In this document: one piece after another, positions 18,372 through 26,797 of the stretch
How the letters are laid out: every line of letters starts with the position of its first letter
Position numbering within the stretch: the first letter of the stretch is position 1
Origin: Mustelus asterias
Taxonomy: Eukaryota
Reading direction: 5' to 3'
Length of the DNA: 64,000 bases
NCBI RefSeq assembly: GCF_964213995.1
Contig: NC_135830.1
Location: forward strand, 7,688,001-7,752,000
Made by a program: the position numbers and the translations under genes
The notes under the pieces: generated by a model
What the model saw: only the letters and a program-made list of their open reading frames with translations
Databases searched by the model: none
Told to the model about the DNA's origin: nothing

Positions 18372-19482
18372 GAGGAACAACAATCCAATAGGACATATAC
18401 CCATTTCTGAGGGACCATTTAAACACCTGTGTATGGATTATGTGGACATGGTGAAAAAGATAAAAGGGAAAAGATATATGTTAGTAATCATTGACAGATT
18501 CAGCAGATGGATAGAAGCAACACCATCTAAAGATCAAGGGTCAGGAACAGTGATCAACTTCCTGACAAAAGAAGTCATTCCAAGATTTGGCATACCAGCC
18601 CAATTAAGTTCAGACAATGGATCTGCATTTGTAGGAAGGGTACTGAGAGAAACCCTCTCAGTGCTCCGAGTGAAACAGAAATTTGGCTGTGTCTACCATC
18701 CTCAGTCACAGGGAATGGTAGAAAGGGCAAATGGAGTTCTTAAGGCCAAAATAAGCAAGATCTGTAGCGATACAGGGAAAAACTGGATTGATGCCCTACC
18801 ACTAGCCTTAATGCAATGCCGAAGTCAGGAGAATAGAAGAACACACTTAAGTCCACATGAGATGATGACGGGGTGACTAATGCCCGTGCCAAAGATTAGG
18901 GGAACGGGAGGCCCTACATTATAATGTTTAGATCAGGGCACTAAAGAGTAGATGCAGCAATTAACTGTTATACATAGAACTATATTTGAACAGGAAAAAG
19001 CCAAAGAGGAAGAAAGCCCAGCGGCTGACCACCGAATCAGACCTGGAGATCGAGTATACATCAGGAAATTCCGAAGGTGCTGGGACGAACCAAGAAGAGA
19101 AGGACCTTTCGATGTTACCAGAGTTTCACCCACAGCCTTACAAGTAGAAGGCAGTACACTGTGGTACCATTTAAATCATTGTACTAGGACAATACCAGGT
19201 ATAGGGGAAGATAGAGAGGCTGTCGAAGTTGAAAGCCCGGAGAGAAGTAGTAGTGGGGACGAAGAAAACACAGGAGAAAGTTCCAATAGTTCTGTGCCAG
19301 ATCAAAATAGAGATGCAGAGAGGGAGGATAGTGAGGATAACATTGAGTTTGATTTGGATGATGGGCCAGATGATGTTCCTGGTCCTAGTACAGGAAGCGG
19401 GGAAGAAGGGGCAGCAGCTCCCGCCCCCTTACCGACTTGGGACTTGGAAACCATTGCCACCAAAGACTTCCTGGGTGAATAA
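18372..19482 (+). pseudogene. pol: Retroviral integrase with stops and a long acidic C-terminal extension
   Basis: DDE: CMDYVDM, SSDNGSAF, HPQSQGMVERAN; EGPF (GPY/F) module; TGA at 18874. Confidence 0.92.
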
Positions 19483-19576
19483 TAGAAAAGTGCAATTTAT
19501 AGCAGACACAACACTAAAAGTCCGAGGAGGAAGAAAAATGTGGAAAATAAAAACTAAGGAATGAGCAAACAGCAAG

Positions 19577-22500
19577 ATGAGTAAGGAAGGTAATCGGGAT
19601 TCTACCTATTATCAACTAAGAAAAAGAAATCACAAGCGGTCAGTAGCAGCAGATACAATTTGGGAAAAAGCACAGAGAAATGAGTGGTGGAAATGGGCTG
19701 AATACACAGGATACAAAAATAATAATGGGAAAGAATGTGTGATATGTGCTTCAGAGAAACCTCGTACTTGGATAATAGATATACCTTGGGGATCAAAGAA
19801 TTGTAGGGATTGGCAGCAAAAATGGAAAAAAGAAAATTGTCAAAGTAAATATCCAACCTATGAGCGAAAGTACACTATAGGGGGCCAGACATTCACTGCT
19901 CAAGTAATAAATTGTTCAGAATCCACTTGCAATAATTTGTGTACTGGGAAGGCACCTATGTGCCAATATCACTGTATCTTACATGCAGGGGTAGGAAGAG
20001 GTACGTATAATTTGACCCACAGATGTCCAAAATGGCCTCGAACGACAGTAGAAGTAGCCCCAAAAGAATGGAAAATGAAACCAGCTTTGTTGATTCAAGA
20101 TTGTTACTGGAGGGAAAATAGTAAGGGAACTGAATTAGGAAATTACACCGGGGATTGTGAAAGAATATGGAACATAGGGGATCTCCGTAGTCTATATGTG
20201 CCACAAAAAGGGGGAACACCACCTCCCGCACAAGTGTTGGAATCACAGGTAAACCAATTAGCTGATCTGTGGTGGCTGTGTGATCCCAAAAAGGGGTTAA
20301 TGGCAAAACTGCCGGTGGATTGGATTGTGTGCTAGGGTCATGCTGGCACAAAATACTGTCCTGCTACCGATGGAACATGAAATGGAAGTTCGAAGAGTGA
20401 GAAGGTCATACACACCTAATCCAGAAATAAAGTTAGATGCAATAGGACAACCTCGTGGAATCCCCAATGAATTTAAAGCGAGAAATGAGATAGCTGCGGG
20501 GTTTGAATCCATTCTAATTTGGATGACCCCCAACAAAAACACTGAATGGATTAATTACATTCATTACAATCAGCAGAGATTCATTAACTACACTGATGAG
20601 GCTCTTACTGCACGAGGTGAGCAGTTAGATGCAACTAGCAAAATGGCTTGGCAGAATAGGCAAGCACTAGATTGGCTATTAGCAGAAAAAGGGGGTGTAT
20701 GTGTTATGTTTGGCGATCAATGCTGTACATTCATCGCTAACAACACTGATCCAAAAGGTTCATTCACTAAAGCTATGACCAAATTACAAAATCTGAGGAA
20801 AGAAATGCATGACAATGCTGGATTTGGCCATAATAAGACCATAAGACCATAAGACATAGGAGCGGAAGTAAGGCCATTCGGCCCATCGAGTCCACTCCAC
20901 CATTCAATCATGGTTGATTTCAACTCCATTTACCCGCTCTCTCCCCATAGCCCTTAATTCCTCGAGAAATCAAGAATTTATCAATTTCTGTCTTCAAGAC
21001 GCTCAACGTCTCGGCCTCCACAGCCCTCTGTGGCAATGAATTCCACAGACCTACCACTCTCTGGCTGAAGAAATTTCTCCTCATCTCTGTTCTAAAGTGA
21101 CTCCCTTTTATTCTAAGGCTGTGCCCCCGCGTCCTAGTCTCCCCTGCTAATGGAAACAACTTCCCTACGTCCATCCTATCTAAGCCGTTCATTATCTTGT
21201 AAGTTTCTATTAGATCTCCCCTCAACCTCCTAAACTCCAATGAATATAATCCCACGATCCTCAGACGTTCATCGTATGTCAGGCCTACCATTCCTGGGAT
21301 CATCCGTGTGAATCTCCGCTGGACCCGCTCCAGTGCCAGTATGTCCTTCCTGAGGTGTGGGGCCCAAAATTGCTCACAGTACTCCAAATGGGGCCTAACC
21401 AGTGCTTTATAAAGCCTCAGAAGTACATCCCTGCTTTTGTATTCCAAGCCTCTTGAGATAAATGACATTACATTTGCTTTCTTAATTACGGACTCAACCT
21501 GCAAGTTTACCTTTAGAGAATCCTGGACTAGGACTCCCAAGTCCCTTTGCACTTTAGCATTATGAATTTTGTCACCGTTTAGAAAATAGTCCATGCCTCT
21601 ATTCTTTTTTCCAAAGTGCAAGACCTCGCACTTGCCCACGTTGAATTTCATCAGCCACTTCTTGGACCACTCTCCTAAACTGTCTAAATCTTTCTGCAGC
21701 CTCCCCACCTCCTCAATACTACCTGCCCCTCCACCTATCTTTGTATCATCGGCAAACTTGGCCAGAATGCCCCCAGTCCCGTCATCTAGATCGTTAATAT
21801 ATAAAGAGAACAGCTGTGGCCCCAACACTGAACCCTGCGGGACACCACTTGTCACCGGTTGCCATTCTGAGAAAGAACCTTTTATCCCAACTCTCTGCCT
21901 TCTGTCTGACAGCCAATCGTCAATCCATGTTAGTACCTTGCCTCGAATACCATGGGCCCTTATTTTACTCAGCAGTCTCCCGTGATGCACCTTGTCAAAG
22001 GCCTTTTGGAAGTCAAGATAGATAACATCCATTGGCTCTCCTTGGTCTAACCTATTTGTTATCTCTTCAAAGAACTCTAACAGGTTTGTCAGGCACGACC
22101 TCCCCTTACTAAATCCATGCTGACTTGTCCTAATCCGACCCTGCACTTCCAAGAATTTAGAAATCTCATCCTTAACGATGGATTCTAGAATTTTGCCAAC
22201 AACTGAGGTTAGGCTAATTGGCCTATAATTTTCCATCTTTTTTCTTGTTCCCTTCTTGAACAGTGGGGTTACAACAGCGATTTTCCAATCCTCTGGGACT
22301 TTCCCTGACTCCAGTGACTTTTGAAAGATCATAACTAACGCCTCCACTATTTCTTCAGCTATCTCCTTTAGAACTCTAGGATGTAGCCCATCTGGGCCCG
22401 GAGATTTATCAATTTTCAGACCTTTTAGTTTCTCTAGCACTTTCTCCTTTGTGATGGCAACCATATTCAACTCTGCCCCCTGACTTTCCTGAATTGTTGG

Positions 22501-25785: not shown

Positions 25786-25862
25786 TTTGAAAATAAGAGG
25801 AGATAATATGACCCTAGATACCATACGCATAGAGGGAAATACTTAAATGATCAAGCAAAATC

Positions 25863-25875
25863 AAGGAGGGAGAGA
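25863..25875 (+). other. Polypurine tract
   Basis: AAGGAGGGAGAGA directly before TG at 25876. Confidence 0.75.
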
Positions 25876-26797
25876 TGTGTTAGTCCAAAGTGTATGAAAT
25901 GTATTAATGCAAAAATGTATTTTAATGAACTATCAGGTAAAGGAAATCTGGAGGAGCAGTTCGCAATTAGGCTATTAATAAACAAAAAGGGATATTGATC
26001 CTACACTTAAGCTCCTCCACATTTCGTGAAACCAAACATAACTAAGACATATATTGGGAAAATATATCAAGAAATAGTTTAGTGAGACAATGATGTCTCA
26101 AAGAGGGGATATGTAAGGGATAATCATTAAGACAACATATATTGGAAGGAATAATTATTAGGACAAGTAGGAGATAATACTTAACATAGAAGAGATAATC
26201 ACTACTTAAGAAGCTCTCATATATCATCACATATCTTATTAAGCATACACTTGTACCCTTTTAAGTGCACAATACCTTACCAGGTCAGTACACATGGATA
26301 CTCACATAAATGAACATAAAGGCTAAAAGAAGTCAAGCAAACACACAGAAGCTGAAAGTAATTTCTTAAATAAACGTGAGAAAGTCAGACAACGGGAAAA
26401 AAGACTTGGCATAGCAGGATGCCCTACAATGGTTGAACAAACAACAACCTTGGCTGATTAGACAATAAACTTCAGATAAGAAGGCAAGATGTAACCACAA
26501 TGATATCATAGCACATTCATTAGTGACCAATCAGAAAGAAGGCAGATAACGTAGGTCTAGTAAACCATGGTGGCTAACGAAAAGTGGCCTTGGGGTCTGC
26601 AACAAAAAAACCTTGACTGTAAGATAAGAATGATGAAATATGAAGCTAAATGTGTATAAAAAAGACTGTGAGAGCACTGGTTTTTTGGATTCATCTGGAA
26701 ATCCCGGCTTTATTGAAATGTATTAGCTAATAAAGCCTTGCTGCCTGGAAGATCAAGACTCAGACTCTCTATTCTGATTGATGAACTCTTCTTGCCA
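25876..26797 (+). mobile_element. ERV 3' LTR (about 920 bp)
   Basis: Starts TG after the PPT; CCAAT about 26527, TATAAAA about 26655, AATAAA 26729; ends CA 26796-97 at the junction with Gypsy sequence. Confidence 0.7.

Follow-up and report, generated by a model that had tools for sequence, protein, structure and literature searches.

Exchange of envelope (env) genes between retroviruses is well known but has been described as replacement. In XtERV-S and RD-114 an env was gained from another retroviral lineage by recombination, and in the parts of these reports compared here the new env replaces the old one (PMC8278194, PMC10536682). The anamniote class I endogenous retroviruses (ERVs) in the text of Chen et al. 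(bioRxiv 10.1101/2021.11.23.469661) combine an epsilon/gamma-like pol with a gamma-type Env containing an immunosuppressive domain (ISD), a CX6CC motif and a transmembrane (TM) helix; env exchange is frequent among them and their hosts include cartilaginous fish. That text likewise describes env replacement and, in its running text, does not contain the terms 'two env', 'second env' or 'dual'. The ERV analysed here lies in a 64,000-nt stretch of Mustelus asterias contig NC_135830.1 (positions 7,688,001 to 7,752,000, forward strand; hereafter the window). It shares these features with the elements of Chen et al. and probably gained an env in the way XtERV-S and RD-114 did, but keeps two env genes, env1 and env2, in tandem. 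No double-env case occurs in the parts compared of PMC8278194, PMC10536682, PMC4131045, PMC4977317, PMC12690878, PMC9967133 and bioRxiv 10.1101/2024.07.05.601823. A retrovirus with two env genes was not found in the literature searched, a scope outside which most subscription papers lie. XTERV1 of Xenopus tropicalis, from the 2011 work of Sinzelle et al., reportedly has two env open reading frames (ORFs), to which we give about even odds; if it does, it would be a direct precedent in an anamniote class I ERV. The citing passages compared here make no mention of two env genes in XTERV1.

The ERV is decayed and probably of class I; the window contains its 3' half, in the order integrase (IN), env1 (split by a CR1 element), a 313-nt spacer, env2, polypurine tract (PPT) and long terminal repeat (LTR) (Table 1). 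This order and its coordinates, taken over from an annotation made from the letters of the window only (the sequence-only reading), were borne out by Pfam, the motifs and the env1 stop. The MLVIN_C domain and the gamma-type Envs point toward a class I (gamma/epsilon-like) ERV, the reverse transcriptase (RT) lying outside the window. PDB matches of IN were headed by foamy virus IN, which is not a basis for classification. In a simple retrovirus a single env stands between pol and PPT; here two env genes were found in this position, in the window as well as in other copies.

Both genes encode gamma-type Envs. The predicted env1 product contains a CXXC motif in the surface subunit (SU; CVIC), a furin site (RVRR), an ISD (QNRQALDWLL), a CX6CC motif (CVMFGDQCC) and a TM helix (hydrophobic peak 3.8). 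Its start codon, an ATG at 19313 inside the pol tail, was placed by alignment of the relatives P0001-P0003. These proteins match env1 by tblastn from 19328 to 24163, with 48-64% identity in SU; identity rises to 78-80% in the TM ectodomain and is 51-52% in the tail. The window copy of env1 is dead: besides the CR1 insertion it has a frameshift near 20325, and a stop interrupts it at 19562. P0003 matches syncytin TM subunits in PDB, and its structure model (predicted local distance difference test, pLDDT, 68) had no fold match at E 0.001 and gives no receptor information. The second gene, env2, starts with an ATG and likewise encodes a CXXC motif in SU (CWVC), an ISD (QNRLALDYLL), a CX6CC motif, here with a stop inside, and a TM helix (peak 3.05). 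P0005 matches it in three frames with 54, 45 and 72% identity (tblastn). This gene is also dead in the window, due to frameshifts near 24878 and 25051 and stops at 25384 and 25507, the latter being the one inside CX6CC. The env2 product and its nearest relatives are short (~420 residues) and do not have the additional domain found at the N-terminus of P0006 and P0007. P0005 matches syncytin-2 with E 2e-20 by sequence and 1e-4 by fold; its predicted structure (pLDDT 74) resembles syncytin-2 and filovirus glycoprotein, and gives no receptor information. Another relative, P0020 (GCB67000.1, Scyliorhinus torazame), is a gene model that fuses ~80 residues of env2-like TM to FCHO2, likely a prediction artefact across an intronic ERV.

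The same arrangement was observed in other copies and organisms. The stretch 23900-26800 was found wholly or partly in 18 of the 20 public sequencing runs listed; the word share was 0.65-0.69 in five runs of organism A, 0.31-0.37 in six runs of organisms B-F and small in the remaining seven. Contigs of four of these runs (X1, organism A; X8, B; X10, E; X14, H) were aligned to 23600-26000. This comparison rests on the rows listed, beyond which there were 214 further pieces, another 80 loose ends and 56 more rows of substitutions. In organism E a single 2063-nt contig covers 24020-26000, and includes the env1 tail, the full spacer, env2 and the LTR start; it differs from the window by 71 substitutions in 1981 positions (3.6%) and 61 gap letters. 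A contig of organism A covers 24032-24482, and two contigs of organism B (24073-24269 and 24449-24727) bridge the env1 stop and the env2 start, respectively. In A, B and E all 30 bins were covered, and the summed contig depth is gapless from the env1 tail to the LTR start. Contigs of other copies continue from env2 into the first 125 nt of the LTR candidate. The main contigs diverge from the window at 20 of 1550 positions in A, 51 of 1684 in B and 22 of 819 in H, where env2 and the LTR start alone are covered (11 of 30 bins); the blank across the env1 tail and spacer in H carries no weight.

Further support for copies other than that of the window is provided by the CR1 boundary and the lesions. 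Loose ends at 23904/23905 were present in X1, X8 and X10. At 23905 the contigs of B and E continue into the env1 sequence that precedes CR1 in the window, with 23 letters matching 20813-20835, so the CR1 is missing from these copies; the loose end of A matches only in its final part. Neither of the two frameshifts in the window env2 recurs in the main contigs. In A the main contigs reached a depth of ~1030-1170, in B one of 83-113 and in E one of 68, compared to 27-64, 2.5-3.2 and 2.6-14, respectively, for the majority of diverged relatives in these runs; this suggests many copies, although depth is not copy number. Among the loose ends listed, no env1 tail or env2 switched to another neighbour within the spacer, apart from a short deletion. 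We conclude that the double-env layout is very probably a trait of the ERV family. The refuting case named in the sequence-only reading, siblings with one env and a join confined to this locus, did not hold: the junction occurs in other copies of A, B and E.

The two Envs have separate ancestries. In pairwise comparison env1-type and env2-type proteins matched in TM only (33% over 119 aa), and tblastn between the types gave matches confined to TM, 36-38% over 73-78 residues. The profiles of the two groups, however, aligned across 362 columns with 17% identity, which indicates that env1 and env2 are distant homologs over their full length. The earlier statement that they share little outside ISD and CX6CC has to be corrected in this respect. 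A tree of TM subunits was built from 80 rows of 99 candidates, those with a recognisable ISD-CX6CC stretch, over 129 columns, which are few for this number of rows. This tree places env1 among Envs of Mustelus and Scyliorhinus and some unnamed ones (100/93); env2 falls in with P0005, P0045 and one Env each of Pristis and Amblyraja (99/83). For both genes, the nearest named relatives come from sharks and rays; together with the CR1 content and a V-set exon of the window they point to a cartilaginous-fish host. On the topology of this tree, tandem duplication of one env was rejected, since the two genes fall into separate supported clades and are not each other's closest relatives; env2 is no recent copy of env1, which argues for capture instead of duplication. 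The capture of an env with both genes carried by the family, as the sequence-only reading had proposed, agrees with these clades and with the retention of env1, spacer and env2 in three organisms.

The spacer contains a strong acceptor-like site. With approximate matrix frequencies, the site at 24282 outscored all other AG sites of the internal region, 360 in total (10.0 bits, the next 5.9), and none of 2000 dinucleotide shuffles of the spacer reached its score. None of the listed substitutions falls on this site, and a short spacer deletion in E and B begins 14 nt downstream. A second acceptor candidate immediately 5' of the env2 ATG had a low score. An internal env2 promoter is not favoured either, as the TATAAA at 24410 is absent from B and E. 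The spacer also holds the best match of the internal region to the true PPT plus LTR start. This PPT-like run begins 14 nt behind the env1 stop, is identical at 15 of 19 positions and scores 22, the next-best internal match scoring 19. To judge from its sequence and position it is probably the former PPT of env1, which suggests that env1 once stood at the genome end, with the env2 unit joined on behind. The sequence-only reading, in which no LTR, PPT or pol is evident between the env genes, needs correction as to the PPT. Of pol, no remnant was found in the spacer at the DNA level (score reached by 234 of 500 shuffles), in the three frames (not significant) or by Pfam. A likeness of the spacer to U3 (24339-24457 versus 26290-26409) is weak (7 of 300 shuffles).

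To ask which env is native, intact env ORFs >1 kb in Data S1 of PMC12813294 were inspected by eye in eight of the ~23 table parts. In the file a length of 1716, the size of P0002, occurs 140 times, mostly in Mustelus, and ~9 of 275 Mustelus rows have the size of env2. Among 169 rows of S. torazame, those of 1731 and 1734 nt have no neighbour within 1 kb. The rows of Sphyrna, Carcharhinus, Mustelus and Hemitrygon-like entries also include ORFs of 1812 nt, which come near the CR1-free length of env1 and are leads only. Judged by these lengths and positions, the close relatives of env1 look single-env. This appearance, together with the overlap of env1 with the pol tail, points to env1 as the native gene. 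The same parts list env_277 (1647 nt) and env_278 (1272 nt) of Mustelus asterias, intact, on the same strand and 480 nt apart (OZ172922.1:2615004-2618402; PMC12813294). As in the ERV described here, the two ORFs stand in same-strand tandem and the second is env2-sized; the spacer is longer, and a single locus is listed. Neither adjacent env genes nor Mustelus is mentioned in the main text (PMC12813294). This pair, known from coordinates only, is a possible second double-env ERV, and the two-envelope layout may have more than one origin.

Three observations underlie the reading of env2 as a captured, separately spliced accessory Env: other copies have the same layout, the two genes differ in ancestry, and the spacer contains a strong acceptor-like site. 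A class I (gamma/epsilon-like) shark retroviral lineage with env1 as native envelope would have gained a gamma-type env from another cartilaginous-fish ERV lineage. Capture may have occurred by recombination, through a template switch between co-packaged RNAs, just behind the old PPT of env1, and the recombinant lineage would then have spread as pol-env1-spacer-env2-PPT-LTR. The simplest route to env2 expression would be its own singly spliced mRNA using the acceptor at 24282. In this scheme env1 would have remained the entry protein and env2 would have served as an accessory, non-essential Env, as receptor interference or immune decoy, later losing fusion features in several lineages. We give this mechanism as a whole a probability of roughly 50%.

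Several points weigh against it. An upstream ATG (24322) lies between the acceptor and the env2 ATG, and no env2 splice junction or transcript was seen, none of the listed runs being recorded as RNA. In the siblings the comparison covered the last 280 nt of env1, so that 23 matching letters of two loose ends are the basis for what is said of their env1 and of its link to pol. Data S1 is restricted to intact ORFs >1 kb, and a broken second env beside the Mustelus and Scyliorhinus relatives of env1 would be invisible in it. In A, B and E alike, env2 is damaged in each main contig examined, a pattern that is equally compatible with plain decay. The stop at 25384, upstream of the ISD, is common to the window and the main contig of A (37.9 of 1140.9 depth differs) and absent in B and E; in E the ISD-CX6CC region carries a net frameshift, and in B 22.6 of 74.7 of the depth has a 9-nt deletion there. 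At the env2 stop, B, E and H are set apart by a 28-nt length difference from A and the window. Finally, env2 of A and of B/E differs by 5 synonymous and 6 non-synonymous substitutions (5:7 with one site reassigned) at an expected synonymous share of 0.21-0.29, counted in 40 of 96 rows (p 0.06-0.18). This excess is not significant and falls short of demonstrating constraint; the differences private to the window were 3 synonymous and 10 non-synonymous (3:9 with one site reassigned).

The same data bear on the possibility that env2 never helped the virus. The recombinant, made in a virion or by nested genomic insertion and deletion, would have been amplified via env1 or by retrotransposition, and the acceptor would be the old one of the donor. 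This is a possible course of events, though a less probable one than that above. Any donor env segment would bring along an acceptor, the env2 lesions differ between the main contigs of A, B and E, and the synonymous excess is not significant, all of which fits such a history. It accounts less well for the retention of ~1.6 kb of extra sequence at nearly full length in lineages ~3% apart, and for the fact that, across the first two thirds of env2, indels separating the lineages preserve the frame. The tandem intact env ORFs of like geometry in Mustelus, a pair that may or may not be linked to the present family, also weigh against it.

The sequence-only reading had offered a dual-receptor virus as one outcome, next to a captured interference or immunosuppressive env. 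A dual-receptor virus with both ORFs open is not supported so far. Two fusogenic Envs would then have been selected as alternative receptor binders, and lesions would have arisen only after germ-line entry. Both genes indeed keep the full set of gamma-type motifs, their SUs are strongly different (17% profile identity), and the main contigs of B show no stop or net frameshift among the rows listed. A canonical furin motif (R-X-[K/R]-R) is present in env2 of the main contig of A and in the relatives P0005 and P0020. We nevertheless regard this history as improbable. The env2 of A has a stop before the ISD, that of E a net frameshift in the region of ISD and CX6CC, and no canonical furin motif was found in the window env2 or in the main contigs of B and E. 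No lineage was seen with a lesion-free env2, and the presence of lesions in the contigs of highest depth indicates that spread continued without an intact env2. Moreover, two trimeric Envs with homologous TM subunits might form mixed, inactive trimers. That two unrelated proviruses were joined only here by nested insertion and deletion is very improbable and largely refuted. In its favour are the heavy damage and 5' truncation of the window copy and the junction marked by the PPT-like run behind env1, but this junction is present in three organisms, in contigs without the window CR1 or its private frameshifts and at a depth far above that of other ERV contigs.

An accessory role of env2, as preferred here, has parallels among host genes. 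Suppressyn, Refrex-1 and FeLIX are truncated, secreted ERV Envs that act in receptor interference. The env2 lesions of A and E would both delete the membrane anchor and leave a signal peptide plus SU, a product that would resemble these proteins; the lesions may reflect decay or a move to a secreted form. In contrast to suppressyn, Refrex-1 and FeLIX, which are single host-co-opted loci, env2 is a second gene inside a spreading ERV, and is known here from sequence alone. More generally, we tentatively propose, with somewhat less than even confidence, that cartilaginous fish carry two-envelope retroviruses with a native entry Env and a captured, separately spliced and selected second Env, used as an alternative entry protein or as an anchor-less decoy. 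A family that keeps donor and recipient env is the expected intermediate toward an env swap, here spread over several shark-type species. Such a family opens to test the way in which an env is captured and the question whether a single virus can accommodate two gamma-type Envs. The same holds for the idea that a captured env can give rise to accessory genes and secreted interference Envs in the virus rather than in the host. Surveys that score env ORF by ORF would overlook a two-env layout.

Searches of further collections yielded no second instance. Viral contigs queried with env1 TM gave no locus, nor did metagenome contigs queried with P0005 (0 of 25 candidates) or genome contigs (0 of 43 candidates). 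Metagenome contigs queried with the env1 alignment gave four loci (L001-L004) among 339 candidates, all distant (~35%) and each with one env by tblastn; in L002 ~1.6 kb separates env from the LTR and contains no second env. Among 30 clusters of RefSeq proteins none had env1-type and env2-type members with adjacent accessions, and none of 280 proteins contained two ISD modules. The vertebrate ERV sequence in metagenome collections (L001-L004, and a small share in the hot-spring run X12) is most likely host or laboratory carry-over.

Table 1. Features of the two-env ERV and of the adjoining CR1 element, in window coordinates.
Feature	Position	Strand	Basis
CR1 long interspersed nuclear element, ORF1 (SGNH esterase) and ORF2 (endonuclease, RT)	14213..18310	-	ORFs 17026-18150 and 14213-17050; Pfam; edge at 18310 approximate
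Integrase core (3' part of pol)	18316..18876	+	Pfam rve, E 2e-18
Integrase C-terminal domain and acidic pol tail	18952..19482	+	MLVIN_C, E 5e-11
env1 5' part: signal region, CVIC, SU, furin site, TM ectodomain with ISD and CX6CC	19313..20835	+	tblastn of relatives P0001-P0003; TLV_coat
5'-truncated CR1 inside env1	20836..23904	-	RVT_1 and endonuclease (Pfam)
env1 3' part: membrane-proximal region, TM helix, cytoplasmic tail, stop	23905..24184	+	51-52% to C-termini of P0001-P0003
Spacer between env1 and env2, exactly 313 nt	24185-24497	+	
PPT-like purine run and degenerate LTR start	24198..24217	+	match to true PPT plus LTR start
Predicted splice acceptor for env2 mRNA	24266..24282	+	matrix score 10.0 bits
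env2, compact gamma-type env, ~425 codons	24498..25785	+	P0005 match in three frames; TLV_coat, E 4e-16; alignment
PPT, 13-nt purine run immediately 5' of TG	25863..25875	+	
3' LTR candidate, 922 nt, TG...CA	25876..26797	+	TATAAA 26655, AATAAA 26729

No second copy of the LTR was present in the window, including the region upstream of IN, and the 3' end of the LTR candidate is unproven for this reason. Gag, a 5' LTR and the remaining pol were not seen in the window, in which no protein search aimed at gag or RT was made; ORFs of at least 90 aa in 1-14300 resemble CR1 or V segments. The window is rich in CR1. The copy that adjoins the truncated 5' edge of the ERV is separate from it; in this copy ORF1 (esterase) and ORF2 (14213-18150, minus strand) are long and open, and the element is apparently young and near full length. 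Just past the LTR lies an integrase remnant (27068-27355, minus strand; rve, E 0.003), probably of a Gypsy-type element. Palindromic elements resembling miniature inverted-repeat transposable elements were found at 26839-26973 and 31337-31504, with more copies at 166-254. Two T-cell-receptor-like V segments are located at 2481-2777 (plus strand, no Pfam match) and 5963-6262 (minus strand, V-set exon at 5966-6262, E 2e-11), and the ERV may sit within or next to an antigen-receptor locus. At least five diverged repeats in 41150-50621 resemble exons of what we take, from the motif only, to be SRCR domains. A degenerate purine-rich tandem repeat with a period of ~50 nt occupies 60250-61021.

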